Assembly: GCA_965222115.1 (NCBI GenBank)
Contig: CBDCTJ010000007.1
Coordinates: forward strand, 2,304,001 to 2,368,000
DNA: 64,000 nucleotides
Source of the DNA: Planctomycetota bacterium
Lineage (GTDB): Bacteria; Planctomycetota; PLA2; JAEUHO01
Reading direction: 5' to 3'
Below the pieces are notes generated by a model. That model saw only the letters and a program-made list of their open reading frames with translations. It was not told the DNA's origin and did not search any database. Below, one piece after another: positions 11,438 through 58,098 of this stretch (the stretch's first letter is position 1; each line of letters starts with the position of its first letter). Both the position numbers and the translations under genes were made by a program.

Positions 11438-11628
11438 CCTTCACCCTTCACCCGTCACTCGTCACCCGTTACCCATAACCCGTACTCAAGGGCGGGCATC
11501 CGATGAACGATTCGCGCAGCCTTAACGTGGACGTGGACGTGGACGTGGACGTGGACGTGGACGTGGACGTGGACGTGGACGTGGACGTGGACGTGGACGT
11601 GGACGTGGACGTGGACGTGGACGTGGAC
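11438..11628 (+). repeat. Modular motif copy A: heptamer tract, core, (GTGGAC)17
   Basis: TCACCCG-like tract, CCCGTACTCAAGGGCGGGCATCCGATGAACGATTC, GTGGAC x17 at 11527-11628. Confidence 0.9.
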
Positions 11629-11812
11629 GTGTGGTGGCCACGTGAATACCGCTTGTGAGCGACACCCATAACGCACCGAACTGATTGTTGTGTGACGTGA
11701 AGGCTCACTGGGCAACACCCGCTTGGGAAGTGCTACGTGCATGCCCCATTCGCCACGAGGGCGAGGGCACGCACTCGCATTCCCGCGGGTGCTTCCTCGT
11801 GGAGATTCTCGT

Positions 11813-12199
11813 ATGTCACACAGCAATCAGTTCTCGGTTACTTCCACAGCGAGTCGACTTGAACGATTCGACGTATATCGAATCGCACGGCGTGCCGCGG
11901 CTAGCATTCACAAGCTCTGTGGATCGCTGCCTCGAGGCAACGCCGAGCTTGCGAGCCAAGCTCGACGAGCCTCTACAGCCGTTGTCCTCAACATCGCAGA
12001 GGGCATCGGACGTGCTGGCGCGGGCGCAAAACACCGCTCGTTCTCCATCGCGCGCGGCGAATGCGTCGAGGCGGCAGCAGCCCTCGACCTCATGCAGGCG
12101 ATGGGCATCCTTGCCGGTGCGAGTGCGGCCCCAACGCTCCGCGACCTGGATCGTGTACGTGCGATGTTGAATGCGCTCATTCGTCACTGGAGAGAGTGA
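11813..12199 (+). CDS. Four-helix bundle protein (TIGR02436/23S rRNA IVP/Avd-like), type A copy 1
   Basis: FDVYRIA...LPRG..ELASQARRASTAVVLNIAEG...FSIARGECVE; GGAG RBS; 128 aa. Confidence 0.85.
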   Translation: MSHSNQFSVTSTASRLERFDVYRIARRAAASIHKLCGSLPRGNAELASQARRASTAVVLNIAEGIGRAGAGAKHRSFSIARGECVEAAAALDLMQAMGILAGASAAPTLRDLDRVRAMLNALIRHWRE

Positions 12200-12217
12200 G
12201 AGGCGCCCATTCCAAGT

Positions 12218-12388
12218 TCCCGTCACCCGTTACCCGTACTCAAGGGCGGTCATCCGAAGATCGATTCACGCCGCTTTGACGTGGACGTGGACGTGGACGT
12301 GGACGTGGACGTGGACGTGGACGTGGACGTGGACGTGGACGTGGACGTGGACGTGGACGTGGACGTGGACGTGGACGTGGACGTGGAC
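12218..12388 (+). repeat. Modular motif copy B with (GTGGAC)18
   Basis: CCCGTCACCCGTTACCCGTACTCAAGGGCGGTCATCCGAAGATCGATTCACG, then GTGGAC x18 at 12281-12388. Confidence 0.9.
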
Positions 12389-12395
12389 GTGTATG

Positions 12396-12479
12396 TAGGC
12401 CAGGTGGGACTCGAACCCACATAGGTTTTCACCCGGGGGATTTTAAGTCCCCTGCGTATACCAATTCCGCCACTGGCCC
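12396..12479 (-). tRNA. tRNA-Leu(TAA)
   Basis: GGGCCAG/CTGGCCT acceptor, GGCGGAATTGGTATACGC D-arm, GGGGA-CTTAAAA-TCCCC anticodon arm, long variable arm, GGTTCGAGTCCC; CCA not encoded. Confidence 0.95.
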
Positions 12480-12900
12480 GCGGACGTACACGGTACCGCA
12501 GACGCAGCCGCTGGCTATCAGCGTGCATCGAGGGAATCGACTGCAAGATTTGCGATTCGGTTCACTGTGGAGTCGATCGCTTGCCAATCAAGAATCTCCC
12601 CTTCGCAATCGGATCGATGGGGCGAAGGTAGCGTGCGTTCGTGGAGGCCGCCGCGTAGTCCTCTACGCAAGAACGACACGGGCGTGCGGGACCGAGCATC
12701 CATCGGTCAGCACCTGAATCGGGCCCAGCATCTCGCATAACCCAATCTCATGACGGTGTGCTGACATGGGAGAAGACAAACTACCTACCTTCGCCCTGCG
12801 TCTCGATTGATCTGACCGAACTCGACATGCAGAACCCACTACACTGGTGCGCCATGAGACATTGTCCTTGAAGGTGCCTTGGGCGGGCAGGGAGGTCGTC

Positions 12901-13170
12901 GTGAAGCGTTTTCGATCGAGTCGCTACAAGTCGGTGCGAATGGCGACGATGGTATTTGCGTGCTTGGTGGGTGGGGGACTTCTCGGCTGTGCATCCAGTC
13001 CCGGCTGAGGCCCCGGAGGATGTGGTGACGGGCCGGAGGCCGCGTCCGATATTGCCATTGATTCTCCGGGTCGCGTACGTCGCAGCAGCTTGTTTCAGCG
13101 CGCCAGCCGACCGAACAAGAACACCAAGTACGGGGCGAACAATAAGGACTATTCGCACCCTTGGCCATAG
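12901..13170 (+). CDS. Small lipoprotein with in-frame TGA (13006-13008); candidate selenoprotein or pseudogene
   Basis: GGAGG RBS, GTG start, MKRFRSSRYKSVRMATMVFACLVGGGLLGC-ASSPG*GPGGCGDG...YGANNKDYSHPWP. The C-terminus resembles that of the downstream gene. Confidence 0.6.
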
Positions 13171-13241
13171 CGCTTAGTCGGGTCGCTTGCGATAACGACG
13201 GATCTGCTACGATGGAATCGCCTTGCGATAGGAGGACTCGA

Positions 13242-13457
13242 ATGTCACGCGCACACATTCGTTTAGCACTTGTACTTGCTTTCTTGCTTGTGCTTCCCGT
13301 GGGTCTTGCCGGTTGTCAATCGGAACGTGGATATACCGATGGCGTGGGCATTCCGTCGCCCTTCTCAAGCTCAGGGCGACCCGTATATTCCGGCAGCGAA
13401 GGCAGCCGCGAGGGTCTCGGCGCCAAGGACAAAGACTACGTGCATGCGTGGCCCTAG
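13242..13457 (+). CDS. Small lipoprotein
   Basis: GGAGG RBS, signal peptide with lipobox LAGC, C-terminus GAKDKDYVHAWP. Confidence 0.7.
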   Translation: MSRAHIRLALVLAFLLVLPVGLAGCQSERGYTDGVGIPSPFSSSGRPVYSGSEGSREGLGAKDKDYVHAWP

Positions 13458-13477
13458 ACCACACGGCACGCCAACTG

Positions 13478-13575
13478 CCCGTTTCCCGTATCCTCCGTCA
13501 CCCGTGTCCCCGTAATCCGTTACCCGTGTCCCCGTAATCCGTTACCCGTGAACCGCCCGATGATCGATTCGTCCC
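13478..13575 (+). repeat. Degenerate modular motif copy C (heptamer tract and partial core, no GTGGAC tract)
   Basis: CCGTCACCCGTGTCCCCGTAATCCGTTACCCG with a 22-bp unit x2, then CCGATGATCGATTC. Confidence 0.65.
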
Positions 13576-13614
13576 GCGTCTAGGAGGTCGAGAACAGATA
13601 GGCGAAGCCCATAT

Positions 13615-13678
13615 GCGCGAGACCCCGGTAAGCACCAGCGGATCTTTGATCCGCGCGGTGAGCATCGAAGGGTGGACG
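13615..13678. repeat. REP-like palindromic repeat R, copy 1
   Basis: GACCC..GTAAGCACCAGCGGATCTTTGATCCGCGC.GTG.GCATCGAAGGGT; also at 44021-44079 and 47847-47912. Confidence 0.8.
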
Positions 13679-13843
13679 GGAAATGGGAAACACCCGTCTC
13701 TATCGGAGGAGTAATTGATCGCCGCGAGTGGGCTCATCTCGCGCAGAGGGAACACGCCCCCTTATCGGCAGGCCAATAGCGTGCGAGTTGGATCATATAT
13801 ATCCATTTTGGATAATTTCTGGCCAGTATGGTGGGATCAGGGC

Positions 13844-14113
13844 ATGAATGTGTCACTCTCCGAGGATCAGAAGAAGTTCATCGAGGACGCCATCCAGGGC
13901 GGTCGCTACTTTTCGTCCGCTGAGGTCGTGCGTGCCGGACTTCGATTGCTCATGGAAAGAGAGGAATCACGAAGGGCGCAGCTTGAACGACTCAGAAACG
14001 GAATACAGCTCGGCCTTGACGACATAGAGAATGGCAATGTAGTTGACGCAGGAGAGTTTTTTCAAGCGTTGAGGGAGCAACTATTGGCCCGCAAGTCGGC
14101 TGCGGACGAGTGA
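13844..14113 (+). CDS. parD: Type II antitoxin, ParD family (RHH, CC2985-like)
   Basis: MNVSLS...GRYFSSAEVVRAGLRLL...LRNGIQLG; overlaps the toxin start. Confidence 0.85.
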   Translation: MNVSLSEDQKKFIEDAIQGGRYFSSAEVVRAGLRLLMEREESRRAQLERLRNGIQLGLDDIENGNVVDAGEFFQALREQLLARKSAADE

Positions 14114-14415
14114 GCCGAAGCATCCTTTCCGCACGTGCATCGAGAGACATTGATGCGATTGTGGCGTTTATCGCAGGTGACTCTATTGATGCGGCCCTTC
14201 GCATGATTGACGAATTTTACGACGCGTGCGCCCTGACCTTCGCTCATCCCGGAATAGGTCACGTCCGACCCGATCTTATTAATGACGACCATGTACGCTT
14301 TTGGTCAGTCCGCGCATTCTTGCTGATTTACCGCGTATTCGATTCGAAGCCAATCGTAGTTCGCGTCGTTGACGGACGCAGAGACGTCCCGAACATTCAA
14401 CTGGACAACGATTGA
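14110..14415 (+). CDS. parE: Type II toxin, RelE/ParE family
   Basis: LSARASRDIDAIVAFIA.DS..AA...HPGIGHVRPDL...VVRVVDGRRD. Confidence 0.85.
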   Translation: MSRSILSARASRDIDAIVAFIAGDSIDAALRMIDEFYDACALTFAHPGIGHVRPDLINDDHVRFWSVRAFLLIYRVFDSKPIVVRVVDGRRDVPNIQLDND

Positions 14416-14570
14416 CTCGCTTCTTCGTGTCCTTCGCGAGAGCCACTCCACTGCTTCTTGGCTCGTTCCGCGTTCCGCCGGCCTTAGCCCCCGCCAATTG
14501 CGTTCCACAACGCTTGCGCTCCCAGCGCCTCCGCAACATTGCGTCTCTGCGTGAGGCAAGTCGCGAACAG

Positions 14571-17500
14571 CTACGCCCCCAAATCATCCACCTTTAAGTC
14601 ATCTTCAATGTGTAGCGCGGGATCGTAGGGGAGATCGCGTTGCCAAGAATGGCCGAAGGCCCAGCGAAGGTTGGCGCGTTGGTCTTCGATGATGAGATAG
14701 AAGCAGGGGATAAGCACCAAGATGAGCAGCGTGGCGAATGCGAGGCCGAACACAATCGATACGGCCATGGGAATCAGGAACTGGGCTTGAAAGCTGGTTT
14801 CGAGCATGAGGGGCGCAAGACCCACGCATGTGGTGATGGACGTAAGGAGAATCGCGCGGACGCGACCGCGGGCGCCCTGAACCAACGCTTCGCGTGTGCG
14901 CATGCCGCTGCGACGAAGACGGTTGACGTAGTCCACAAGAATCAATCCGTCATTAACAACAATGCCTGCCAGCGCAACCGAGCCAATCATCGAAAGTAGC
15001 GTAAAGGGATAGCCCAAGAGTGCATGGCCGCCGATGGCGCCAACGAACGAGAATGGAATCACACCCATGACAATGATCGGCTGAACGTAGGAGCGAAACA
15101 CGATGGCAATGATCATGAAGATTACGAGCAGCGCGAGAGGAAAGAGGATCCTGAGAGACCCCAAAGACTCTTGAAGCTCCTTCTTTTCACCCTCAAATCG
15201 CACCGACGCACCACGAAACTCATTGCCGAGCGTGGCGAGTTTCGTCTCCAGAACCTTACTGATTTCATTGACGTTGGCCTTTTGCGTGTCGACTTCGGCC
15301 CGGACCGTGGCGGTGCGTTTGCCATCCACGCGACGCAATGCCGCGTAGCCGCGTTCGGTCGTGAATGTGGCGATCTCCGATAGCTTGGTGCGCTCGCCGC
15401 TTGGCAGTTGCACACGAATCTCACCAAGATCATCGAGGTTTTGACGGTAACGCTCCGGCAACATGACGCGAACCGTCACCTCGTCACGCCCCACTTGAAG
15501 GTCTTGTGCCTCGAATCCAAAAAGTGCGTTTCGAAGTTGAATGGCAAGGCCCGTCGTAGTGACTCCTAGGATCCGTGCGTCCGGGCGCAAGCGTATACGC
15601 GCTTCGAGTTTTCCGAGTTGTAGATCGTCATAGAGTTCTTCTACGCCGTCAAAGGAACGCACCAACTTGCTGACGTGTACGACGGCCCGTCGCAGCGTTT
15701 CTGGCTCGTCGCAGCGCACTTGAATCTCAATGTCGGGCCCCTGCGGGCCTCCACCCAGCGCCTTCCAGCTCAGCCGCTCAACGCCTGCAAACTCAGAGGA
15801 TTGCTTGCGTAGATCGCTCAGCAAGACGCCCGATACGCGCAATCCCTTGGATTCTCGATCTTCTGCGGGCACCAATTCCATGGTGACTTGTCCCACTGTG
15901 GCGGGATCGTTTGCGATCTCCTTACCGCGATCATTGAACGACGCACCCACGACCGTGAATACGGTTTGAACTTCCGGCTGCTTTGAGACCAGACGTTCGA
16001 TTGCAGCGAGTGTGCGCACGGTTTCTGCTTCGGGTGTGCCGGCCGCCATCTCAAGACGCGCGGTAACCGTTTCCGCATCGGTGTCCTGCAACAAGACGAA
16101 TGGAACAATACCGCCGGCAACCAGTCCAGCAGACGCCATCAACAGGCTCGTCACAAGCGCTACCGTCACGTAGCGCCAACGAAGGGCGAATCGAACGAGG
16201 CCTTCTAAGGCATTGGGGATGATGACTTCAAAGATCCGATGCCGCGCTTCCCCGAAACGATGGAAGAACCCTCGAAGGCCCGTAGCGTCCTTTCGGGTCG
16301 TCTTGTTGCCGTGGGCCAAATGTCCCGGAAGAATCAAAAATCCTTCGATCAAAGATACTGACAATGCGGCGATCACCACCACGGGCAATACGCCCAGGAA
16401 AGCACCCATACGTCCTTCAATAAACATGAGCGGCAAAAACGCGGCAATGGTCGTAGATACTGCCGCAATGACCGGCCACGTAACCTCGCGCGCCCCCAAC
16501 TCCGCCGCTGCAAGTGGTGCGAGGCCCTGTCGTCGTCGTCGAAAGATGTTTTCGCCAATGACAATGGCGTCATCCACGATGAGGCCGAGCACCACAATCA
16601 AGCCAAACATGCTGATGAGATTGATCGATGCACCAAATGCGTACATGAGAATAAACGTGCCCATAAACGACACGACCAAGCCAATAGCTACCCACAACGC
16701 GATGCGCAATTCCAAGAACACCGCAAGCGCGATCAATAGGAGAATGAACCCAGCCAACGCATTGCGCGTCATCAAATCGAGACGCTGGCGGATAAAGCGG
16801 CTGAGGTCCGTCGTGACCGAGAGTTTGACCGCGCCGCCCAGTTTGGTGGGGTTGTTCTTGACGTAGGCCGTCACCTGATCCGATATCTTGATTGCATCTT
16901 GCTCAGGTGACTTAAATACGTTGATCGAAATGGCTCGCTTGGAGGCAAATCGCCCCCGCGCTACGACATCTTCAAAGGCGGGCTGAATATCGGCGATGTC
17001 GCGCAGCAATACCGCCGTGCCATCGGGCCTTGTGACGACCACCTTTTCTTCCAGTTCTGCCACGGTGCGCGATTCACCGAGCGTGCGCACCCGTACATTG
17101 GACGTGAGTCCCTTGAGTTGACCGCCGGGGACGTCTTCATTGAGCGCCCGAAGGACGCGGCCGACCGTTTCAAACGTGAGCCCGTACTGCTCCAACATCT
17201 CAGGACGTAATGTGATGTGGTACTCGCGCTCACGCGAACCCGTAACAACGAGCTCTGTGACTTCGGGCAACTCAAGTAAATCGTCTTGAACCTCCTCCGA
17301 AATCGCTCGCAATCGCTCCTCACTCACGTCGCCGTGGACTACCACCGCAATGGCGGGAATGTAGGGCCGCTGCTCAACGATTTCGGGTTCTTCGGCACCA
17401 TCGGGCAAGTCGGGTTTGACCTTGTCGAGCTCGGCCCGCATATCTTCGAGCACCTGCGCGCGATCCGCGCCATCGTCTACTTTGCCAACGATGAGTGTGA

Positions 17501-19261: not shown

Positions 19262-19380
19262 GGCAGGTCGGTTGAACCGAGGCGAGCGATGCCATGGTAC
19301 GTCTGCGTGCCGGGCGCACGCCGGGCTTTCAGTCAGGAATTCACCCGTTCATTGCGGCCCGTGGCGCCGGTCTCAGGCGA

Positions 19381-20454: not shown

Positions 20455-20568
20455 GGAAGAAAACCTATCGCGACCCGGGTGGCGACCGTATTCATTTCGG
20501 CGCTATTCCGTGCTGGGGAACGTAGAATGCTCCATCGCCGGCGAACGTCGGTCGCAAAGGAGTCCGTC

Positions 20569-20805: not shown

Positions 20806-20869
20806 CCGTATTGCGCGGTCAGATAGATTCTCGACCGGTTACGGGCGAAGGGGAGCCGATGCCCAGCCA

Positions 20870-21511: not shown

Positions 21512-21600
21512 TCCACGTCACTCGGTGTCGTTCATCGTCTGAGCGTTCATGGTCTTCGCGTTAATCTTCTTAGCCATGCGCCTGTTCTGACGAGTCCGGG

Positions 21601-40461: not shown

Positions 40462-41040
40462 GTGAAGCCACTCGTCCTCGCCAGTGCCAGTCCCCGTCGC
40501 GCCGAGTTGCTACGCGAAGGCGGCATCGCATTCGAAGTGTCACCCCGTTTGAATGTGGATGAGTCCTATGAGGCCGGATGGGCACCGACTCAAATCGTCG
40601 AATCGCTGGCGAAGCGAAAGGCCGAGGCCGCGATAGCCCAGTTTCCCGACCGATTCATTCTTGGCGCCGACACGATTGTCGTGCACGAAGGGGATGTCCT
40701 GGGGAAGCCGAAGGATCGAGAAGACGCGGTTGCCATGTTGAAGCGCCTTTCGGATCGCTGGCATGACGTGTGGACCGGCGTCGCAATTGTTGCTCCCGGC
40801 AACCCCGAGGCCGCGCATGTAGGGCATGTGCGTACCGCGCTCTGCTTTCGCGCATTGGACGATCAAGAGATTCACGACTATGTCAATAGCGGCGAACCTA
40901 TGGACAAGGCAGGCGCTTACGCAATTCAAGGCGACGCGGCGGAGTGGGTCACGAAGTGTGAAGGTCCGGTGGACAATGTGATTGGCTTGCCCATGTTGCA
41001 TGTCGAGCGGTACCTGGGGGTGGTGGGGTACGGCGAATAA
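40462..41040 (+). CDS. maf: Maf family nucleotide pyrophosphatase
   Basis: LASASPRRAELL, GADTIV, GKPKD, DKAGAYAIQG, NVIGLP. Confidence 0.93.
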   Translation: MKPLVLASASPRRAELLREGGIAFEVSPRLNVDESYEAGWAPTQIVESLAKRKAEAAIAQFPDRFILGADTIVVHEGDVLGKPKDREDAVAMLKRLSDRWHDVWTGVAIVAPGNPEAAHVGHVRTALCFRALDDQEIHDYVNSGEPMDKAGAYAIQGDAAEWVTKCEGPVDNVIGLPMLHVERYLGVVGYGE

Positions 41041-41059
41041 ACGTGTCCCGCTCGGAACG

Positions 41060-41196
41060 CCGTCATCCGTTTTCCCGTACCCCGTACCCCGTACCCCGTC
41101 ACCCCGTCACCCGGGCACAAGAATGAGTGTTCGATGATCGACTCGTCCATCGTTTAGGACGTGGACGTGGACGTGGACGTGGACGTGGACGTGGAC
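41060..41196 (+). repeat. Modular motif copy D with (GTGGAC)6
   Basis: (CCCGTAC)n tract, diverged core TCGATGATCGACTCG, GTGGAC x6 at 41161-41196. Confidence 0.8.
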
Positions 41197-41198
41197 GG

Positions 41199-41573
41199 TC
41201 AAGGCTCGTCGAACCTTCGTTGAAGCACAAACAACATGGCGGCGCATCGCTCCAGAGTGTTCATGACGCTTGAAACTGCGGCCTCGCTGGCGAGTCCGAG
41301 TAGTAGCGCTTGATGTAGAGCGGCAATGGCTTCGGTGCATTCGGCGTGTGCGATATCGTAAGCTTTGCGTTTCTCGGCTGGCCGCCGTTTCGATATGCCT
41401 TCGGCGACGTTTAGCGCCACGCTGGTACTTGCGCGCCTGAGTTGATCGGCGAGTTTTGCGTGGCCACGAGGCCATTCACCGCAGATGGTGACGCACCCGA
41501 CCGCCGCGGCCTGCGATGCACGGTAGACGTCGAAGCGTTTGAGGTATTCGAGCGTGGAAGACGCGCTTGTCAT
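41199..41573 (-). CDS. Four-helix bundle protein, type B copy 1
   Basis: FDVYRAS...WPRGHAKLADQLRRASTSVALNVAEG...YDIAHAECTE; 124 aa. Confidence 0.85.
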   Translation of the reverse strand: MTSASSTLEYLKRFDVYRASQAAAVGCVTICGEWPRGHAKLADQLRRASTSVALNVAEGISKRRPAEKRKAYDIAHAECTEAIAALHQALLLGLASEAAVSSVMNTLERCAAMLFVLQRRFDEP

Positions 41574-41783
41574 GATGGAGCTCCAGCGTGAAGGGATCGC
41601 AAGCCGTTTGCTCGTGTGTGCCCTTCGCAAAAGAGCCGAAGGCGAAGGAGGGCGCACACGAGCGGGTCGTACAAACAGAACCCCGCGCAATAGCGTCAAC
41701 TCGTTCTCAAGCTGGAGTTCCATCACAAGCGGAGTTCGCGCGTACCGAACGTGCTGGAGCAACTGGCGGTGTTGTCTAAGGCT

Positions 41784-41869
41784 CCGTCACCCGTTACCCT
41801 TTCCCCGAGTTCAAGGGCGGGCATCCGATGAACGATTCACGACCCCTTAACGTGAACGTGGACGTGGAC
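41784..41869 (+). repeat. Modular motif copy E with a short hexamer tract
   Basis: CCGTCACCCGTTACCC...TCAAGGGCGGGCATCCGATGAACGATTCACG...GTGAACGTGGACGTGGAC. Confidence 0.85.
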
Positions 41870-42017
41870 GGTGTGCGCACCGAACTGATTGCTGTGTGAC
41901 GTGAAGGCTCACCGGGCAACACCCGCTTGGGAAGTGCTACGTGCATGCCCCTATTCGCCACAAGGGCGAGGGCACGCACTCGCATTCCCGCGGGTGTTTC
42001 CTCGTGGAGATTCTCGT

Positions 42018-42404
42018 ATGTCACACAGCAATCAGTTCTCGGTTACTTCCACGGCGAGTCGGCTTGAACGGTTCGACGTGTATCGAATTGCACGGCGTGC
42101 CGCGGCGAGCATTCACCATCTCTGTGGATCGCTGCCTCGAGGCAACGCCGAGCTCGCAAGCCAAGCTCGACGAGCCTCTGCGGCCGTCGTCCTCAACGTC
42201 GCGGAGGGCATCGGACGTGCCGGCACGGGCGCCAAGCACCGTTCGTTCTCAATCGCTCGCGGCGAGTGTGTCGAGGCCTCGGCTGCGCTCGACCTCATGC
42301 AGGCAATGGGTATTCTCACAAACGCGTGCGCGATGCCTACACTTCGTGATCTCGACCGCGTCCGCGCGATGTTGAACGCACTTATCCGCCGCTGGAGGGA
42401 ATGA
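42018..42404 (+). CDS. Four-helix bundle protein, type A copy 2
   Basis: Close paralog of 11813-12199, including the ~140-nt leader. Confidence 0.85.
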   Translation: MSHSNQFSVTSTASRLERFDVYRIARRAAASIHHLCGSLPRGNAELASQARRASAAVVLNVAEGIGRAGTGAKHRSFSIARGECVEASAALDLMQAMGILTNACAMPTLRDLDRVRAMLNALIRRWRE

Positions 42405-42423
42405 GGGGAGTTACATGAAAGCC

Positions 42424-42465
42424 GAATCCCGCAAAAAAGTGCCGGGTGTAAATTTGCGGGGTTCG
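42424..42465. repeat. Palindromic repeat P, copy 2
   Basis: Matches 11389-11429. Confidence 0.8.
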
Positions 42466-45236: not shown

Positions 45237-46954
45237 GGCGCACCCACCGAACTCGAGTTGCTACCCTGAGCGGCAAACGCACGCCTGTCACGTCGCTGCC
45301 GCTTCTCATGGTCGCCGCCTTCTGTTTGCTTGTGAACGATGCATGCGGCGGTACGCCACGGTGGGGCATGGGCCCGTTTCCTGTTGGCGGTAAGAACACA
45401 TCCACCGCGGGTGCGCTTGCCGTGCTCACGGGGTTGAGCCCATCGATTGCGCGCACACGAGCCATTGCGTGGGAAGAACTCGAGCCGCGCATGATGCCCG
45501 GTACGCTCGGTCGCTACGAATGGGGGCGACTCGACGCCGCCGTGCGACTTCTGCAGCTCGGCGGATTCGAACCGCTGGTTGTTTTGTCTTGTCGTTCATC
45601 ATGGGCGTGCCAACCCACCGACACAACGGCTTGGGCGAAGCGTTGTTCGAGCGAACTGTCACGTGGCGAAGCTACGGCGGCCTTGGTGGAGACCAACGGA
45701 TCGGGTCGTCCACCGCGCAAGGAACATTGGAAGCGTTGGGAGGTGTTTGTTCAACACCTTATGGAACGCTACGACGGTGACGGGAAGCACGATATGCCCG
45801 GACTGCGTCGCCCCATTATTGGTGTACAGATTCAGGAATCGCCCGGCGAACTTGACGATTGGATTGGCAGCGTCAGCGACTACCTGCGGTTGTTGCACCA
45901 CACAGATCTTGGCGCCCACGCGGCGAGTGCAAGCGCACTTGTCGTCACCGGTGCCGTCGATGTGATGCAAACGGGGCAGGCGCCTCACCCCGCACCGAAG
46001 CAGTGGAAACGGCGCATTCGGGATGTGTTACCCACCGCGCCTCAGTCGGCGGTCATGGCCGCCGAGCGCGCCTTTGAACTCTTGGATCGTCTGCTCGAAA
46101 TGCCCCGTGTCTACGATGTGATTTGCCAGCGCGCATCGGGCAATCTGCACAACGACTTTGCCAATATCCGCTTTCTGCGAAGAACGCTGGATGGCAAGCG
46201 CGAGTATGACCGACGCGTGTGGCTCGTGAATGCGGGACGCAATCTAGAACGAGCCACCATCCGCGGTAAACCCAAACCATCCGAAGACGAACTCCGTATT
46301 CGGCGACGCTGGGTGCCGCCCGCCACCAACCCTGGCCATTCTGAACATGCGCGTGCCAAGGCTTGGTTGCGCTTGGGTCAAGCCTACGACGTTATTCGCA
46401 CCTTTTGTACGGCACGCCTGGCCGGAGCCGATGCCGTGGTATGTCATGCGCCGTTTGATGAAGTGTTGGATGCTCGCGGTCGTACCGTTCGCGGCGCCCA
46501 GTATTTGGGTCTGGTTGACGCGAAAGACCTTGACGTTGCTGCGACGGCATCGCGTACACCCAGTTGGTACGCGGCAAAGCAACTTGGCGATCTACTGCAC
46601 GACCACCGCAGCGTGGCTGAAGCCAACAAAGGGCTCCCGGGTCGAACCGTGTTGTTTCATTTCAACGCGAATGCAAAGCACTCATTTGTCGCCGTCCTCT
46701 TTCGCGATCCATCGCGTACATGGGCCGGCGAACCGGGTCGCAATGGCCGCCCCCCCAAAGCCAAGCTCCACTTTGCCGCCATGCCACTCCCCAATGGCCA
46801 CTACTACGTTGAGTCCATTCGCACCACCGCGAAGCCGGCACCCAAGAAGCGTGTAAACGTGCGCGATGGTGTTCTCGAATTGAGCTTGGGTCCTGCGCCT
46901 GTGTTTGTGTATCCGGTGCCGTTGAACGAAATCACGGCGGATCGGGGGAAGTAG
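45230..46954 (+). CDS. Putative glycoside hydrolase-like secreted protein
   Basis: WEELEP...GRYEW..LDAAV and ERYDGDG..DMPGL motifs resemble GH-A clan TIM barrels; catalytic motif diverged. Confidence 0.5.
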   Translation: MARRTHRTRVATLSGKRTPVTSLPLLMVAAFCLLVNDACGGTPRWGMGPFPVGGKNTSTAGALAVLTGLSPSIARTRAIAWEELEPRMMPGTLGRYEWGRLDAAVRLLQLGGFEPLVVLSCRSSWACQPTDTTAWAKRCSSELSRGEATAALVETNGSGRPPRKEHWKRWEVFVQHLMERYDGDGKHDMPGLRRPIIGVQIQESPGELDDWIGSVSDYLRLLHHTDLGAHAASASALVVTGAVDVMQTGQAPHPAPKQWKRRIRDVLPTAPQSAVMAAERAFELLDRLLEMPRVYDVICQRASGNLHNDFANIRFLRRTLDGKREYDRRVWLVNAGRNLERATIRGKPKPSEDELRIRRRWVPPATNPGHSEHARAKAWLRLGQAYDVIRTFCTARLAGADAVVCHAPFDEVLDARGRTVRGAQYLGLVDAKDLDVAATASRTPSWYAAKQLGDLLHDHRSVAEANKGLPGRTVLFHFNANAKHSFVAVLFRDPSRTWAGEPGRNGRPPKAKLHFAAMPLPNGHYYVESIRTTAKPAPKKRVNVRDGVLELSLGPAPVFVYPVPLNEITADRGK

Positions 46955-46983
46955 GGGTTGGGTACAACTAGATGTGATAAAGC

Positions 46984-47101
46984 TCACCCGTCACCCGTCA
47001 CCCGTCACCCGTTACCCGGACTCAAGTCTGAGCGTCCGATGTTCGATTAGCGCCTGTTCGTGGACGTGGACGTGGACGTGGACGTGGACGTGGACGTGGA
47101 C
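46984..47101 (+). repeat. Modular motif copy F with (GTGGAC)7
   Basis: (TCACCCG)4 TTACCCGGACTCAAGTCTGAGCGTCCGATGTTCGATT; GTGGAC x7 at 47060-47101. Confidence 0.9.
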
Positions 47102-47103
47102 GA

Positions 47104-47478
47104 TCACGGGTCGTCGAATCGACGCTGAAGTACGAACAACATCGCGACACATCGCTCCAAGGAGTTCATCACGCGTGAGGTTATGGCGTCGCTGGCGAGG
47201 CCGAGTAGCAGCGCGTGATGTAGGGCCGCAATGGCTTCAGTGCATTCGGCGTGTGCGATGTCGTACGCTTTGCGTTTCTCGGCTGGACGCCTTTTCGATA
47301 GGCCTTCGGCGACGTTTAGCGCCACGCTGGTACTAGCGCGCCTGAGTTGATCGGCGAGCTTTGCGTGGCCTCGAGGCCATGTGGCACAGAGGGCGTTGCA
47401 TTCAAGTGCCGTGGATTGTGAGGTGCGGTAGACATCGAAGCGTTTGAGGTACTCAAGCGTGGAAGACGCGCTTGTCAT
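47104..47478 (-). CDS. Four-helix bundle protein, type B copy 2
   Basis: Close paralog of 41199-41573, including the leader. Confidence 0.85.
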   Translation of the reverse strand: MTSASSTLEYLKRFDVYRTSQSTALECNALCATWPRGHAKLADQLRRASTSVALNVAEGLSKRRPAEKRKAYDIAHAECTEAIAALHHALLLGLASDAITSRVMNSLERCVAMLFVLQRRFDDP

Positions 47479-47687
47479 GATGGAACTCCAGCGTTAAGGG
47501 AATGCAAGCCGTTTGCTCGCGTGTGCCCTTCGTGAAGGAGCCGAAGGCGAAGGAGGGCACACGCGAGCGGGTCGTACAAAAGAAGCCCCGCGTAATAGCG
47601 ACAACTCGTTCTCAAGCTGGAGTTCCATTGCAAGCGGCGCCCGCGCGTACCGATCCCGCTGGAGCAGCCGGCGGTGTTGCCCAAGGT

Positions 47688-47825
47688 TCCGTCACCCGTT
47701 TCCCGTGCCCCGTTACCCGGACTCAAGTGTGGGCGTCCGATGTTCGATTCACGCCAGCTCGTGGACGTGGACGTGGACGTGGACGTGGACGTGGACGTGG
47801 ACGTGGACGTGGACGTGGACGTGGA
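47688..47825 (+). repeat. Modular motif copy G with (GTGGAC)10
   Basis: CCCGTTACCCGGACTCAAGTGTGGGCGTCCGATGTTCGATTCACGCCAGCTC; GTGGAC x10 at 47761-47820. Confidence 0.9.
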
Positions 47826-47846
47826 GAGCAAATGGCCTTGCCATTT

Positions 47847-47912
47847 GCGCGAAGACCCTGAGTAAGCTCCAGCGGATCTCTGATCCGCGCAGTGCGCTTC
47901 GAAGGGTGGACG
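47847..47912. repeat. REP-like palindromic repeat R, copy 3
   Basis: Matches 13615-13678 and 44021-44079. Confidence 0.8.
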
Positions 47913-47945
47913 CAAAATTGCTCGCGTCAGGTTCCCGGTCAAACG

Positions 47946-48320
47946 CTACTTATACGCCCCATCCTTCTTCATCGCGCATGTCTTGCACGCGGGGCCACCG
48001 TTGGCCTTGTGTTCATAGCAGTCTTTGCACGCGGTTTTGTCGCCTTTGATATAGCCAGCACTGCAGGCTTCGCACCATACGCTTTCGCCGGTCTTGCCCT
48101 TGTAGCAACTTTCGCAGCCCGTCTTATTGCCATCGACGTAGCCCACGCCGCAGGCTTCGCACCAAACGTTCTCGCCTTTCTTGCCCTTTGTGCACGTCGC
48201 GCAGGCCTCGGCCTCTTGGGAATCGCCACAGCCTGTAAGGAGTACGACGGCGGGTGCGGCAACGAACAAGGTGGCGACAATGAACAGCTTGGCGGATAGA
48301 AATCGTGTGAGGGTTTTCAT
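47946..48320 (-). CDS. Small Cys-rich lipoprotein with repeated CxxC units
   Basis: GGAG RBS, lipobox LTGC, six CxxC pairs, internal duplication CxxC-x-KGK-x-GE-x-VWCEAC-xx-GY. Confidence 0.75.
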   Translation of the reverse strand: MKTLTRFLSAKLFIVATLFVAAPAVVLLTGCGDSQEAEACATCTKGKKGENVWCEACGVGYVDGNKTGCESCYKGKTGESVWCEACSAGYIKGDKTACKDCYEHKANGGPACKTCAMKKDGAYK

Positions 48321-49035: not shown

Positions 49036-49078
49036 GATGATTCCTACGCGCCATGCGCAACGCATACGCGGGTCGTCG

Positions 49079-50554: not shown

Positions 50555-50600
50555 TCGGGAATCCTCCGTCTTTGCTGCGTGTCCGCGTTTAATTGGGCCT

Positions 50601-51113: not shown

Positions 51114-51300
51114 ACCAAGCCGCTTGAGGTTGTCGATCGAATCGATCGCTTGACAGGGAGCCTACCGACCCATGCCCGTTGCCAGCTCGGTGCACGAAAC
51201 GCGACAACCATGCAAGGATCCATATGTCTGCATGGTTTCAGGGCCTCGAAGGGAGGCGAACGCATCTGCTGGATCTGCGCGCTCCTGGTCTCTTAACCTC

Positions 51301-53451: not shown

Positions 53452-53816
53452 TGTCTGAGTCTGGCGCAATGCCTGAGACCGCAACGACGCCGCGTGCGAT
53501 TCGACTGGACGTTGCGGATGACCTGCTCGAAATCGCCTGGGCCGATGATCACGTGTCCACCTACTGCGGCGCGTACCTGCGGTGGATTTGCCCGTGCGCC
53601 GACTGCCGTGGGCACTACAAGGGGCAAAAGCCCGACCTGGCGTGGCGTGCTGTTTCCCACGTGACCGTGAGCCATGTTGAGGCGGTGGGCACCTACGCGC
53701 TCCGATTTGATCTTAGCGATCGCCATGAATCAGGCATCTACAGCTATACGCTCCTGCGCGAGCGATGTCCGTCCACGCGAAATGACCTGGACGTACGCGG
53801 ACGACCCAAGACGTAG
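53451..53816 (+). CDS. DUF971 / gamma-butyrobetaine hydroxylase N-terminal-like protein
   Basis: W.D.H.S.Y...YLR..CPCADC, VGTYAL...SDRHESGIYSY. Confidence 0.85.
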   Translation: MSESGAMPETATTPRAIRLDVADDLLEIAWADDHVSTYCGAYLRWICPCADCRGHYKGQKPDLAWRAVSHVTVSHVEAVGTYALRFDLSDRHESGIYSYTLLRERCPSTRNDLDVRGRPKT

Positions 53817-53977
53817 GCCTCGAAGAGCCCAACAGGAAGCAAACCGCGTCAGCCAATTCGGCCCCGCCTAGTGGGCCCAATTCGTGACCGTCTTTCCGCG
53901 CGGCGGGGTTGATGGTCGATAGTATTCCCATTTCTAGGGCCCCAGCCCTGCACCAGTTCGTCCAACGGAGAAGCACT

Positions 53978-55573
53978 GTGGACCTACAGCTCAACGCAAC
54001 CGCGGTCAAGGGTCTCTCGGCGGTTCATATGAACCTCAGTCGTCCCGAGCTCTACGAGGCCATTGTGACGCGTGGCGAGGCGCAGCTGGCCAAGGGCGGC
54101 GCGATTGCCGCCACGACCGGTGAATACACGGGACGATCCCCCAAAGACAAATACATCGTGTCCACGTCAACCACGGAAAACGTCATTTGGTGGGACGGCA
54201 AAGAAGCGCATCGATTTACTCGCGAGCAATTCGATGCACTTCATAGAAAACAACTCGACTACCTCAAGGGCAAAGAACTTTTCGTGCGTGATTGCTACGC
54301 TGGCGCAGGTGAACAGAATCAAATGCGCGTACGTATTGCAACGGAGCGCGCGTGGCACAACTTGTTTGCGCACAACATGTTTCGGCGAGTGAACGACGCA
54401 GACGTCCTCAAGAATTGGGAGCCTGAGTTTTCGGTGCTTCAGACCCCCGGATTTTCCGCCACGCCCGACGCCGACGACACGCGCTCCGAGGTGTTTGTTG
54501 CGCTCGACTTGGAGCGCCGCCTCGTCATGATCGGCGGCACGCGCTATGCGGGCGAAATCAAGAAGTCGATCTTTACGGCGCTCAATTACCTATTGCCCCT
54601 GAAGGGCGTACTGGGTATGCACTGCTCGGCTAACACGGGAGCCAATGGCGATAGTGCCGTGTTCTTTGGGTTATCGGGCACAGGAAAAACAACGCTCTCG
54701 GCCGATGCATCGCGCGAGTTGATTGGTGATGACGAGCACGGGTGGAGCGATCAGGGCATCTTCAATTTCGAAGGCGGTTGCTACGCCAAAGTGATTCGAT
54801 TGTCACAAGAAGCCGAGCCCGAGATCCATCGCACCACGGGCATGTTCGGCACCATCCTCGAGAACGTTCCGTTCTTCCGAGGCACGCGCATTCCCAACCT
54901 TGACGACGATTCGCTCACCGAGAATACGCGCGCGTCCTATCCGCTGGAGAGCATCGACAACATCGTTGAGTCGGGCACGGGCGGGCACCCCAAGCATGTC
55001 ATTATGCTCACCTGCGATGCGTTTGGCGTGTTGCCACCCGTGGCCATGCTCTCGCCGGAACAGGCGATGTATCACTTCATAAGCGGGTACACGGCCAAAG
55101 TCGCGGGTACCGAGCGGGGCGTCACGGAACCCAAAGCCACGTTCTCCGCATGCTTTGGCGCGCCCTTCATGCCGCTACATCCCGGTCGTTATGCCGAACT
55201 CCTAGGTAAGAAGATCGAAGAACACGGTACCCGTTGCTGGCTGCTCAATACCGGCTGGAGTGGGGGCGCCTATGGCGTTGGATCCCGCATGCCCATACGC
55301 TATTCGCGTGCGCTTTTGAATGCCGCCCTCGCGGGCACCCTCAACGATGTCGAGATGCGCGTCGATCCCACCTTCGGGGTGTCGGTGCCGGTGTCGTGCC
55401 CCGGCGTCCCGGATGAAATCCTCGATCCGCGTAGCGTGTGGGACGACACGTCCGCCTACGACGAAAGGGCCGCCAAGTTGGCGCAGATGTTTCACGAGAA
55501 CTTCAAAGCCTTTGAGGACGGCGTCACGCCTGCAATCCGCAAAGCGGGCCCGCGGGTGGGGGCGGCGGTGTAG
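53978..55573 (+). CDS. pckA: Phosphoenolpyruvate carboxykinase (ATP)
   Basis: TGRSPKDK, YAGEIKK, MHCSAN, GLSGTGKTTLS, LIGDDEHGW, NTGWSGG. Confidence 0.95.
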   Translation: MDLQLNATAVKGLSAVHMNLSRPELYEAIVTRGEAQLAKGGAIAATTGEYTGRSPKDKYIVSTSTTENVIWWDGKEAHRFTREQFDALHRKQLDYLKGKELFVRDCYAGAGEQNQMRVRIATERAWHNLFAHNMFRRVNDADVLKNWEPEFSVLQTPGFSATPDADDTRSEVFVALDLERRLVMIGGTRYAGEIKKSIFTALNYLLPLKGVLGMHCSANTGANGDSAVFFGLSGTGKTTLSADASRELIGDDEHGWSDQGIFNFEGGCYAKVIRLSQEAEPEIHRTTGMFGTILENVPFFRGTRIPNLDDDSLTENTRASYPLESIDNIVESGTGGHPKHVIMLTCDAFGVLPPVAMLSPEQAMYHFISGYTAKVAGTERGVTEPKATFSACFGAPFMPLHPGRYAELLGKKIEEHGTRCWLLNTGWSGGAYGVGSRMPIRYSRALLNAALAGTLNDVEMRVDPTFGVSVPVSCPGVPDEILDPRSVWDDTSAYDERAAKLAQMFHENFKAFEDGVTPAIRKAGPRVGAAV

Positions 55574-55627
55574 CTCGGATCCTTCCGCCGCAATCCGACT
55601 ATTGAATCGCCGAGCGCCGAATTAGCG

Positions 55628-55690
55628 CTTCGCGACCTCGACCGCGTTCGCGCGATGTTGAACGCGCTCGTCCGCCGCTGGAGGGCGTGA
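55628..55690 (+). pseudogene. 3' remnant of a type A four-helix-bundle gene
   Basis: Translates LRDLDRVRAMLNALVRRWRA*, near-identical to the C-termini at 12199 and 42404. Confidence 0.8.
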
Positions 55691-55764
55691 GGCACTCTCA
55701 TTCATTCAGCGATTCTCGAAATTTGGTGCCAGGCGCAGATTGCGTGTGTCATCCAGTAGCGCAC

Positions 55765-55822
55765 TCCCGTTACCCGAAACCCGTTACCCGTTACCCGACA
55801 CCCGCAACCCGTTACCCGGACT
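55765..55822 (+). repeat. Modular motif copy H, left half (heptamer tract), split by the IS
   Basis: (CCCGTTA)n-like tract ending GTTACCCGGA-CT. Confidence 0.85.
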
Positions 55823-56791
55823 TCTATGAAAGGGCCTGGCATGTCAAGTGCGAAGCCGCGTCGGCGAGCGCATTTACCGCGTTGTGCATGTGTAGTTCGG
55901 CCCCTTGAGTGCGCAACTTACCCTTACCGCCCTTGCCTTTTTGGCAGCGGATCGGGGCGAATCAGATTGCCAGTCATCGTCTCTGGCGCCAGAAAACACG
56001 TCCCATTCAGGCTTCTATGCGCACTCGTGTTGGATCGAAGTTGATGCGACCCGGTGCAAGGTGGGGTCCGAGAACGAGTCTGGGTGCTGCATACTCAGTA
56101 GCGACGTCGCTATACGTCGGTCAGGGCACCGCAGTCACCCGGACTTCTATGAAAGGGCCTGGCATGTCAAGTGCGAAGCCGCGTCGGCGAGCGCATTTAC
56201 CGCGTTGTGCATGTGTAGTTCGGCCCCTTGAGTGCGCAACTTACCCTTACCGCCCTTGCCTTTTTGGCAGCGGATCGGGGCGAATCAGATTGCCAGTCAT
56301 CGTCTCTGGCGCCAGAAAACACGTCCCATTCAGGCTTCTATGCGCACTCGTGTTGGATCGAAGTTGATGCGACCCGGTGCAAGGTGGGGTCCGAGAACGA
56401 GTCTGGGTGCTGCATACTCAGTAGCGACGTCGCTATACGTCGGTCAGGGCACCGCAGTCACCCGGACTTCTATGAAAGGGCCTGGCATGTCAAGTGCGAA
56501 GCCGCGTCGGCGAGCGCATTTACCGCGTTGTGCATGTGTAGTTCGGCCCCTTGAGTGCGCAACTTACCCTTACCGCCCTTGCCTTTTTGGCAGCGGATCG
56601 GGGCGAATCAGATTGCCAGTCATCGTCTCTGGCGCCAGAAAACACGTCCCATTCAGGCTTCTATGCGCACTCGTGTTGGATCGAAGTTGATGCGACCCGG
56701 TGCAAGGTGGGGTCCGAGAACGAGTCTGGGTGCTGCATACTCAGTAGCGACGTCGCTATACGTCGGTCAGGGCACCGCAGTCACCCGGACT
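55823..56791. repeat. Three tandem 323-bp copies of the IS right-end non-coding region
   Basis: Units 55823-56145, 56146-56468, 56469-56791; they appear identical (identical spurious ORFs in the track). Confidence 0.92.
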
Positions 56792-56852
56792 CGAATTGGG
56801 GTACGTGGAAACTGACCTTATCTAATGCTTGCCTAAAGCTGTTGCGCGAGGT
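56469..56852 (-). ncRNA. Putative bridge/seek RNA region of the IS1111-type element
   Basis: Inferred from position (non-coding region 3' of the IS1111 transposase) and short matches to target and donor junction; boundaries unknown. Confidence 0.5.
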
Positions 56853-57902
56853 TCAGGCGGCCACTGGGCATCGAACCGGTATGTACTCTTCGCCTGTTCG
56901 CCACAGCGCAAGCATGAGCACGGAGAGCTTGCGTGCCACGGCGATGACTGCCTTGCGTTTCGCAACTGCGCCTCCACGCGCAATGATCCGCTCACCGTGG
57001 GACTTTAGATCGCATGGCGGGCCCAGTCGCCCGAGGATGTGATGCGCGCACTGAACGAGCAACGACCGAACCATACGGTCCCCAGCCTTCGTTATGCGTA
57101 GCTGCTTGTCCATTTGGCCGGATTGATCACGCCGTGGAACCATCCCGAGAAACGCCCCGACATCTCGGCGGTCTTCAAACCGCGCCCAATCTTGAACGGT
57201 TAACATGAATGCGAGTGCCGTGAGATTGCCCACGCCTGGAATCTGAGTGAGCAACTGTGTATCTGGATATCGCTCGTTCGCCAACTCATCGATCTTTGCG
57301 TCGTAGATCTTTACCAACTCAGTGATTCGCTCGATTGCACCGAGAAGGGGACTAAGCACATCGTAGAGCTCCTCCGGAATCTCGGCCCGCGTCTTCGTTC
57401 CGATGCATTTTGATGCCTGCTTACGCAACCGCCCGCCCATGCTCTTAATGACGCCTCGTAGCGAGTTCACCAACTTGGTTCGTGACGACACAAGCGCGGC
57501 TCGTGCACGAATCAGCGCAAGGTCTCGTTGTGCGGACTCCGGTCGATGCCGAATTGGGGCAAGTAGTTGGGGATCGAAGCGACCGATTTCAGCCAACTTC
57601 TTGGCATCCGTTCGATCGGACTTGCGAGTGTTCCTGTAAATAAAGCTTAGCTCTCGCGGATTCGCGACTAGCGACTGAGCACATCGACCTTCGACGACCC
57701 GACTCGCCCAAGGCGAATGCGTTCCCGCCTCCATCACAACTCGAGCGGTTCGGTGCTTCGATAGAAACTCGTGAAACGATTCGCGCGTTGTCGCTATCTC
57801 GCCTTCTTCCTTCTGAACCCCCGTGTCTTGATCTAAGACGCAATACCAAGAGAATCGGTCGCCTAAGTCGATGCCAATCGTTTCGGTGATACGCTTATGC
57901 AT
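56853..57902 (-). CDS. IS110 family transposase/recombinase
   Basis: GIDLG, VMEAG, KSDRTDA (DEDD); IPGVG, LGMVPRRDQSG; AGGAGG RBS before ATG 57902. Confidence 0.95.
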   Translation of the reverse strand: MHKRITETIGIDLGDRFSWYCVLDQDTGVQKEEGEIATTRESFHEFLSKHRTARVVMEAGTHSPWASRVVEGRCAQSLVANPRELSFIYRNTRKSDRTDAKKLAEIGRFDPQLLAPIRHRPESAQRDLALIRARAALVSSRTKLVNSLRGVIKSMGGRLRKQASKCIGTKTRAEIPEELYDVLSPLLGAIERITELVKIYDAKIDELANERYPDTQLLTQIPGVGNLTALAFMLTVQDWARFEDRRDVGAFLGMVPRRDQSGQMDKQLRITKAGDRMVRSLLVQCAHHILGRLGPPCDLKSHGERIIARGGAVAKRKAVIAVARKLSVLMLALWRTGEEYIPVRCPVAA

Positions 57903-57999
57903 GCTGGTAGCTCCTCCTGGGCCGTAGAGCCCGCTTATTGTTTGCAGCACGGTTTACCGTGACTGCGCGACAGAGGAGCTACCGGCCTTTTCATCCCAT

Positions 58000-58098
58000 C
58001 TCAAGTGTGAGCGTCCGATAGTCGATTCACGCCAGCTCGTGGACGTGGACGTGGACGTGGACGTGGACGTGGACGTGGACGTGGACGTGGACGTGGAC
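58000..58098 (+). repeat. Modular motif copy H, right half with (GTGGAC)10
   Basis: CTCAAGTGTGAGCGTCCGATAGTCGATTCACGCCAGCTC, GTGGAC x10 at 58039-58098; continues the left half as in copy G. Confidence 0.9.

Follow-up and report, generated by a model that had tools for sequence, protein, structure and literature searches.

A stretch of 64,000 nucleotides (nt) from the genome of a Planctomycetota bacterium (assembly GCA_965222115.1, contig CBDCTJ010000007.1, referred to as C7, positions 2304001-2368000), hereafter the window, carries small four-helix-bundle genes of two paralogous types, A and B, which are bracketed by copies of a composite tandem-repeat motif, M. The encoded proteins belong to the intervening-sequence protein (IVP/S23p) family, TIGR02436/PF05635, reportedly known since 1993 as the open reading frame (ORF) of rRNA intervening sequences (IVS). 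We consider the chances about even that the loci described here are chromosomal, intergenic relatives of the IVS of 23S rRNA, in which an Avd-like gene is accompanied in cis by arrays of short tandem repeats. The reading draws on the presence of M beside every copy of the gene in this genome, on tandem tracts of other sequence beside relatives of the gene in many phyla, and on the gain or loss of gene and tracts as one block in other genera. In the literature searched, which lay largely outside subscription journals and supplements, no description of tandem-repeat flanks of IVP genes outside rRNA was found, and this habit of the gene family across phyla, tract-flanked in intergenic DNA, is apparently undescribed.

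Motif M and the genes it bounds

The genome comprises 4.55 Mb in 7 contigs (59% G+C). A profile of M, derived from the 72 nt preceding each of 26 GTGGAC tracts and searched with nhmmer (E <= 0.01), identified 53 copies, of which 26 are the seeds of the profile and match by construction and 27 are new; 49 are located on C7 (2.274-2.939 Mb) and four on contig C3. Read along one strand, M consists of an optional left module (GTGCCGGG...AAATTTGC), three to seven CCCGTNA heptamers, a core of 40 nt (ACTCAAG-N3-G-N2-C-N-TCCGATGNNCGATTCNCGCC) and 0-33 GTGGAC units, often followed by a hairpin (GCAAATGGC-N3-GCCATTTGC). The identity of the core among copies is 0.73, tracts of at least three GTGGAC units number 27 genome-wide, and 35 of the 53 heptamer tracts fit a four-run C3/G3 pattern, prone to G-quadruplex formation on one strand. 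The possibility that M is itself a hairpin was considered and rejected, no consensus fold being obtained (z -0.5). Within the window, the profile matched at 11461, 12217, 13530 (degenerate), 41095, 41786, 46997, 47698 and 57990, and a 26-letter IUPAC pattern of the heptamer-core junction, with at most two mismatches, matched six times against a chance expectation of 0.00, a number reached in 0 of 100 shuffles. All eight copies listed in a preliminary description of the window were thus confirmed; it did not mention the left module and right hairpin, nor the conservation and structure of the leaders and the relation to the replication terminus described below.

A total of 18 genes matching TIGR02436 were identified in the genome, all on C7 between 2.27 and 2.85 Mb and none with an internal stop codon. 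They include eight of type A (128 aa; mutual identity 88-95%) and ten of type B (124-129 aa; 83-94%), the two types sharing 39-46% identity. All 18 copies score above the TIGR02436 cut-off of 24 bits (A 70.2 bits, B 59.9 bits), and the scores against PF05635 (23S_rRNA_IVP; cut-off 33.8) are 68.2 for A and 62.6 for B. The four intact genes of two types recognised earlier in the window were found to be members of this family, two of type A on the plus strand and two of type B on the minus strand. The predicted structure of A (pLDDT 93.3) has four long helices and matches 2GSC (Xcc0516; TMt 0.89-0.91, TM 0.8-0.9), an entry with five chains to which phmmer also relates the sequence (E 7.8e-7), and 2RLD (BT_0352; TMt 0.82-0.88). 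Relatives of solved structure are pentamers. The proposed kinship of fold with Avd was borne out as well, the model of A matching Avd (4DWL) and the ribonucleoprotein structures of diversity-generating retroelements (DGRs; 8UBE) with TMq ~0.7 at a sequence identity of ~10%. The accessible text of PMC10053308 likewise describes PF05635 as resembling Avd; elsewhere, IVP ORFs in rRNA insertions of the Candidate Phyla Radiation (CPR) are called uncharacterised in the available part of a 2024 preprint (bioRxiv 10.1101/2024.02.27.582315), and IVP genes have been found inside cas loci or operons, according to the accessible portion of PMC3936711 and a figure legend of PMC10910872. No defence-system family of PADLOC-DB matched either type (0 families for A and 0 for B at E <= 0.01), and a tblastn search of plasmids gave no match.

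Each of the 18 genes has a copy of M within 277 nt on at least one side, and 16 of them have copies within 469 nt on both sides, so the association of motif and gene family, noticed in the window, holds genome-wide. Counted from the motif, 30 of the 53 copies adjoin a gene and 23 have no gene within 500 nt. M is the boundary of the units, as had been proposed, and the copies bracketing genes are direct repeats. A complete unit reads M-B(reverse)-M-A(forward)-M, an order shared by all four two-gene arrays. Type A runs forward relative to M, the GTGGAC tract being followed by a conserved leader of 140-180 nt, the gene, and a stop codon shortly before the next heptamers (10-25 nt in several copies), and type B runs in reverse, its stop codon being 2-4 nt away from the GTGGAC tract and a leader of 210 nt adjoining the next heptamers. 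The B copy at C7:2274575, outside the window, is 129 rather than 124 aa long and ends in ...PWPSTS because its reading frame continues into the GTCCAC tract; in a relative from another genome (locus L097, see below), the hexamer tract itself provides the last codons of the gene (GTGTGTGTG...).

Automatic clustering of the copies gave 33 M-bearing loci, comprising four two-gene arrays, ten one-gene loci (four M-A-M, five M-B-M and one B-M) and 19 gene-less loci. Some of the gene-less loci retain remnants, either the tail of an A gene or a fragment of a B leader; such a leader fragment adjoins the solo M at C7:2443736 (nhmmer), and ends resembling the B leader were recognised by eye beside the solo copies at 2728050 and C3:354509. 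These shorter layouts and the solo copies of M fit recombination between direct M copies. The neighbours of the units in this genome are protein genes, and one unit abuts a tRNA-Leu gene.

That unit stands first in the window, where all copies of M are on the plus strand. M1 (11432-11628), with its heptamer tract, core (11484-11526) and (GTGGAC)17 (11527-11628), precedes gene A1 (11813-12199, plus strand; TIGR02436/PF05635, 128 aa), and M2 (12210-12388), made up of heptamers, core and (GTGGAC)18 at 12281-12388, follows it and abuts tRNA-Leu (12395-12479, minus strand). The degenerate M3 (13478-13686; nhmmer match at 13530-13582, 21 bits) is without a GTGGAC tract and carries a tail module at 13590-13686. 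The second group consists of M4 (41060-41196), with a variant core and (GTGGAC)6 at 41161-41196, gene B1 (41199-41573, minus strand; TIGR02436/PF05635, 124 aa), whose stop codon is 2 nt from that tract, the central M5 (41784-41870; two GTGGAC units) between the divergent B1 and A2, and gene A2 (42018-42404, plus strand; 128 aa), which is without a downstream motif, the next M being 4.6 kb off. This next copy, M6 (46984-47101; (GTGGAC)7 at 47060-47101), and M7 (47688-47959; (GTGGAC)10 at 47761-47820, then a tail module with the hairpin GCAAATGGC/GCCATTTGC) enclose gene B2 (47104-47478, minus strand; 124 aa). The remnant reported earlier was confirmed to be the end of a type A gene (55617-55690, plus strand; last 22 codons and stop), and lies before M8. 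The GTGGAC tracts of the window thus hold 17, 18, 6, 2, 7, 10 and 10 units.

M8, given earlier as a copy at 55765/58000, proved to be one motif split by an IS110-family insertion foreign to the system (55813-57999, minus strand; transposase at 56870-57902, minus strand). Its left half (55700-55812) has the left module and a heptamer tract cut after ACCCGGA, and its right half (58000-58098) has the core, starting at CTCAAG..., and (GTGGAC)10 at 58039-58098. The inserted element carries three tandem 323-bp copies of one of its ends (55813-56780), the end 3' of the transposase, each terminating in GTCACCCGGACT, and its sister copies (C7:506880-508412 and C3:484749-486286) have one end copy each and targets of the form ...GTGTGGATTTT...|CTC.... 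Targeting of M by the IS110 element was considered and rejected, as the two sister copies are in unrelated sites.

The tail found after some copies of M is partly a repeat in its own right. Positions 31-100 after M (47848-47917 in the window) match 36 places in the genome (nhmmer), contain the hairpin GCGGATC-N3-GATCCGC, occur also without M on contigs C1 and C3, and are found several times as inverted pairs ~100-200 nt apart. Directly after the degenerate motif and its tail is a pair of small overlapping ORFs (13848-14415), presumably a ParD-type antitoxin and a ParE/RelE-type toxin. Contig C6 of the assembly (48,116 bases) has a G+C content of 39.7% as against 55-59% in the other six contigs, and possibly represents either a contaminant from binning or a foreign replicon.

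Selection, leaders and chromosomal position

The gene copies are old and under purifying selection. Synonymous divergence (dS) is 0.58 among the A copies, with dN/dS of 0.08 (28 pairs), and 0.69 among the B copies, with dN/dS of 0.11 (45 pairs). Identity of the leaders (A 0.89, B 0.87) exceeds that of the four-fold-degenerate sites of the genes (A 0.65, B 0.64), which places the non-coding leaders under stronger constraint than the silent positions. When folded together with the first 45 nt of coding sequence, the leaders are predicted to form long helices in which the ribosome-binding site or the start codon is hidden. The predicted helix of the A leader (A1, 11631-11812; A2, 41876-42017; both plus strand) has 68 pairs, 45 of them invariant and 4 compensatory, with a segment, the 5' arm in A1, that would pair with the AUG and the first eight codons; two pairs are altered on both sides, one tracking the N5K codon change and the other in the H3Y copy. 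For the B leader (B1, 41574-41783; B2, 47479-47687; both minus strand), the model has 69 pairs (43 invariant, 3 compensatory), and a segment, in B1 the structured 5' region, would pair with the Shine-Dalgarno region, compensatory changes included. The whole A unit folds with z -5.1. At the gathering threshold Rfam finds two tRNAs and nothing else in the window, and at E <= 1 nothing on 40950-42450 and one chance miRNA match on 46900-48000; scans for sigma-70 promoters and terminators were not above shuffles.

The distribution of M on the chromosome is uneven. The cumulative GC skew of C7 has its minimum at ~0.6 Mb and its maximum at ~2.78 Mb, and all 49 copies on this contig (2.274-2.939 Mb, or 15% of genome length) are found around the latter switch. 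Copies within an array are not independent, and clusters are therefore the units to be counted. Co-orientation with replication is observed in 24 of 29 clusters on C7 (p 0.0005), in 27 of 33 with C3 included, and in 22 of 27 groups when the copies are grouped by hand (p 0.0015); by single copies the figure is 46 of 53.

In agreement with the earlier statement that no reverse transcriptase (RT) or recombinase belongs to the units, no RT, HUH transposase, IS110 or tyrosine recombinase was found to recur beside the units across the ~33 loci of the genome. The seven RVT_1 matches are group II-like by length and none is inside a unit. The nearest, at C7:2631845-2632531, is 1.2 kb upstream of the M-B-M locus at 2633763; it is one of three identical-scoring 445-aa frames and appears group II intron-like from its length and copy number. 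Both Y1_Tnp matches (C7:1411691 and C7:1066506) are more than 0.8 Mb from any M, and of six IS110 matches one is the insertion into an M. Among seven tyrosine recombinase (Phage_integrase) matches, one is within 2 kb of an M and none adjoins a gene array; the nearest, at C7:2445157, is 1.35 kb from the remnant M at 2443736. A scan of metagenomes with a flanking protein detected no relative, and a scan with a 29-letter core pattern detected four stretches without heptamers or hexamers, taken as chance matches. In all relatives with matches, Maf and its neighbour are on different contigs or far apart, synteny being lost at the family level.

Relatives of the unit in other genomes

In the same family and order, 12 of 31 genomes (this genome included) have a match to TIGR02436, and most have few or none. 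The relatives present in several copies have the same design in different letters. A genome of the same order and another family (G020) carries M'-B'(reverse)-M'-A'(forward)-M'-M' with (ACCCGA)n tracts and hairpin leaders; in another (G001), the gene is preceded by four 122-nt units in direct orientation, with (GTGGCC)n, and followed by two inverted units, and a third (G013) has 90-nt units with (ATCCCN)n. The A and B genes of the present genome form one clade apart from the two types of G020, by which the two-paralog state arose more than once; a single ancient A/B split shared with G020 was rejected by this clade pattern.

For a survey across phyla, an alignment of A and B sequences from this genome and G020 was used as the query against species-representative genomes, and the best 80 of 228 relatives were taken. 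Tandem tracts of period 5-8 were sought within 250 nt upstream or 200 nt downstream of the gene, with one locus per assembly and full flanks. Such a tract was found beside the gene in 45 of 58 loci, on both sides in 25 of them, as compared with 38 of 809 control windows (4.7%) taken more than 700 nt away. Where both sides carry tracts, the same unit is inverted in ten loci and direct in seven. The median number of units per tract is 5.3 (interquartile range 4.1-5.8; 93 tracts), a distribution shaped by the lower cut-off of 3.3 copies. In typical simple elements, such as L097, ~5.5 hexamers stand just before the start codon and their reverse complement at or over the stop codon, and the two tracts fold into a ~45-bp terminal stem (z -5.1); an inverted terminal stem was also seen in L061. 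Tandem arrays of larger repeats were observed downstream of the gene in two metagenome-assembled genomes, namely seven ~67-nt units of the form (AATCGY)n-AAGGAGA-(RCGATW)n in an Anaerolineae (L069:2830-3280) and four 58-nt units, each with a (GGGCAC)n tract, in a Chlamydiae (L098:340-600).

Tract types cluster on the protein tree. For ACGGGC, seven changes are needed as against a shuffled mean of 15.6, and none of 500 shuffles was as low, while the clades of a tract type mix phyla. Gene and tracts have thus been inherited and transferred together. Their joint gain or loss is also seen directly. In Anaeromyxobacter, two genomes carry the element in the spacer between a pair of conserved genes and five have that site empty, the distance between the anchors being 700 nt in A. 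oryzae (tracts and gene), 934 nt in G046 and 41-105 nt in G035, G037, G047, G041 and G052. In Hymenobacter, the gene is found at the syntenic site in H. rubidus, the query, alone among 26 genomes searched, and several of the other gaps measure 95-190 nt as against 592 nt. A. oryzae has, besides its one gene, over a dozen solo tract matches at 0.13-5.9 Mb of its 6.7-Mb chromosome, two of which were folded and gave gene-less hairpins of ~190 nt (z -4.8 and -4.4). H. rubidus also contains a ~100-nt repeat (L057:1388-1487), 83-89% identical among copies and matched more than once in many of the 26 Hymenobacter genomes, which is unrelated to the four-helix-bundle element. Of the mobile system suggested in the preliminary description, the part that stands is the gain and loss of a gene-plus-tract block in Anaeromyxobacter and Hymenobacter; the copies of the present genome, with dS of ~0.6 and dN/dS of ~0.1, have not been recently mobile.

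Nature of the element

The preliminary description knew of no account of such a system, which overlooks the IVS of 23S rRNA, where, in the accessible text of PMC4990558, the same ORF stands between inverted repeats with variable tandem heptamers. The Coxiella IVS is described there as selfish; RNase III cuts its stem, which is formed by a 28-bp inverted repeat, and 2-3 variable tandem heptamers (GACAGAT) precede the S23p ORF. The units share with the IVS of Coxiella and Leptospira and the rRNA insertions of CPR the same protein family as only ORF, a small size (0.4-0.9 kb), short variable-number tandem repeats in the flanks, a sporadic distribution and the lack of a known mobility gene, and the simple relatives, L097 among them, have inverted flanks that pair into a long terminal stem. 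They differ in being placed between protein or tRNA genes rather than in rRNA, in flanks that are direct three-part modules and not an inverted pair, in two paralogs of fixed divergent order, with arrays, solo modules and 53 copies, and in a leader helix predicted to hide the start site.

Other known systems resemble the units in part. Repetitive extragenic palindromes (REPs) with their RAYT transposases, including the REP doublets known as REPINs, and miniature inverted-repeat transposable elements similarly combine a repeat-flanked gene with many gene-less intergenic copies, as seen in A. oryzae and in part here, but the four-helix bundle lacks an HUH/Y1 transposase domain (both Y1_Tnp genes being remote from M), the repeats are tandem 6-7-mers and not a REP palindrome, and no target duplication is defined. 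With Avd of the DGRs the proteins share the fold (TMq ~0.7 to 4DWL), and the Pfam family is reported to be Avd-like in the accessible part of PMC10053308; unlike in DGRs, no RT gene adjoins the units and identity is ~10%, template/variable repeat pairs not having been searched for. TRAP and other ring proteins read tandem RNA repeats. As a working analogy, relatives of the present protein form a homo-oligomeric ring and the tracts of relatives have a median of 5.3 units, whereas the GTGGAC tracts here have 0-33.

If the loci are relatives of the IVS, the basic unit would be a TIGR02436/PF05635 gene with cis-acting arrays of 6-7-nt tandem repeats, which in this lineage would have become an elaborate two-gene, direct-repeat cassette. 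Homologous recombination between direct M copies would reduce the full unit to M-A-M, M-B-M and solo M, and in this manner every layout seen is explained. An oligomer of the protein may recognise the tandem tracts of the element that encodes it, in the form of single-stranded or folded nucleic acid, in which case M would be the cis site of the protein and not the site of a recombinase. Spread to new sites probably took place long ago in this lineage with machinery supplied in trans, and selection would now maintain the units, the leader helix normally blocking translation. A broader proposal, which we regard as possible though rather doubtful, is that IVP proteins are the trans-acting partners of a new class of repeat elements found across phyla, in which an oligomeric ring would read about one repeat per subunit, gene-bearing copies would be autonomous and gene-less hairpins dependent on them, as with RAYTs and REPINs, the rRNA IVS would be copies that landed in rRNA, and M-B-M-A-M would be a two-protein, direct-repeat derivative retained by the host around the replication terminus.

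Several observations weigh against the kinship with IVS elements, or limit how far it reaches. No conserved RNA fold of M was found (alifold -0.7; z -0.5), so that the RNA-protein module entertained in the preliminary description was not borne out for M itself, and the two tracts of M are not mutually complementary, unlike the inverted-repeat stem of the IVS. The clustering around the terminus and the polarity with replication are not predicted by this model, and a host function would account for the prolonged purifying selection on 18 copies no worse than a selfish one would. In this genome neither an empty site nor a target duplication or circle junction was detected; the reads were available as low-depth contigs (depth 2-6) that end at repeats and whose joints join paralogous repeats, and a read joint from 55797 to 58000, with 27 letters on its shorter side in two runs, is indistinguishable from another motif copy. 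The survey across phyla, with its query from this genome and G020 and the best 80 of 228 relatives, samples one subfamily, 13 of its 58 loci have no tract by the criterion of period 5-8, and the clustering of tract type on the protein tree is evidence of co-inheritance only and not of binding specificity.

M could instead be an independent intergenic repeat, of the REP type, a bacterial interspersed mosaic element or a terminator-insulator, next to which the genes came to lie by segmental duplication in a permissive terminus region. The 23 copies of M without a gene within 500 nt would suit this, as would the combination of M with the tail, another dispersed repeat with some of its 36 nhmmer matches far from M, and the regional pairing of A subclades with variants of the M core, as segmental duplication would give. 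Yet all 18 genes adjoin M, though the 53 copies with 500 nt on either side cover only ~1% of the genome; the junctions are precise in several copies (B stop 2-4 nt from GTGGAC, A stop 10-25 nt from the heptamers); and a lineage-specific REP cannot explain different tracts beside 45 of 58 relatives in many phyla against a background of 4.7%. We regard an independent repeat as unlikely on this balance. A host system for chromosome organisation or replication termination, in which polar M sites in two opposed groups are bound by A and B as factors acting on forks or on the structure of the terminus domain, likewise appears rather improbable. It would account for the confinement of all 49 C7 copies to 15% of genome length around the GC-skew switch at ~2.78 Mb, the co-orientation of 24 of 29 C7 clusters with replication (p 0.0005), the four-run C3/G3 pattern in 35 of 53 heptamer tracts and the purifying selection on 18 copies. 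However, any strand-preferring element changes orientation at the terminus, where mobile DNA also tends to accumulate, the solo tracts of A. oryzae are spread over 0.13-5.9 Mb of a 6.7-Mb chromosome, and species differ in whether they have the gene, which is unlike a core function of the chromosome. Age, selection, and position and polarity around the terminus nevertheless leave room for a host function.

Two further explanations invoke an enzyme encoded elsewhere, and both are considered highly improbable. Integron cassettes and Xer-dependent dif modules are promoter-poor small genes with a recurring site between them and no internal recombinase, and the units could be cassettes of this kind, moved by a distant site-specific recombinase with the core of M as crossover site. 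The comparison extends to the n+1 motifs for n genes in arrays and the absence of a recombinase from the cassette; cassettes are also found pointing either way with respect to M, what is conserved in the core is its sequence and not a structure, and the units occupy the terminus region, where Xer acts, in a genome with seven tyrosine recombinase matches. On the other side, one of ~33 loci has a recombinase near (1.35 kb from M) and no integrase is beside the arrays (attC models not having been run), the XerC/XerD-type imperfect palindrome was not recognised in the core when aligned by eye without a model, the site is a composite of 100-300 bp with microsatellites whose copies extend over 0.67 Mb instead of one array, and relatives in other lineages have plain tandem tracts without a core. 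In the other explanation, the Avd-like protein recruits an RT encoded elsewhere, for instance that of a group II intron, direct terminal repeats arise by template switching as in long terminal repeat (LTR) elements, and solo M copies correspond to solo LTRs. In favour are the activity of Avd, the nearest structural relative with a characterised function, as part of an RT-RNA complex, the seven RVT_1 matches of the genome, the direct repeats that flank each gene and the abundance of solo repeats. In this genome, however, no RT is in a unit or consistently near one, and genes in both orientations between co-oriented M copies would not be given by copying of a single transcript.

These loci provide a handle on the origin and movement of the rRNA intervening-sequence elements. 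In the sampled subfamily, arrays of short tandem repeats accompany the gene in the intergenic DNA of many phyla, and one genome offers 18 selected copies of two paralog types, a 40-nt core and structured leaders, by which the old question of the role of the IVS protein is made directly testable. If the protein binds the repeats with an effect on their processing or copying, this would constitute a new kind of protein-repeat element and would bear on the role of Avd; and the clustering around the terminus and the polarity with replication, if true of other genomes, would be of separate interest for chromosome biology.

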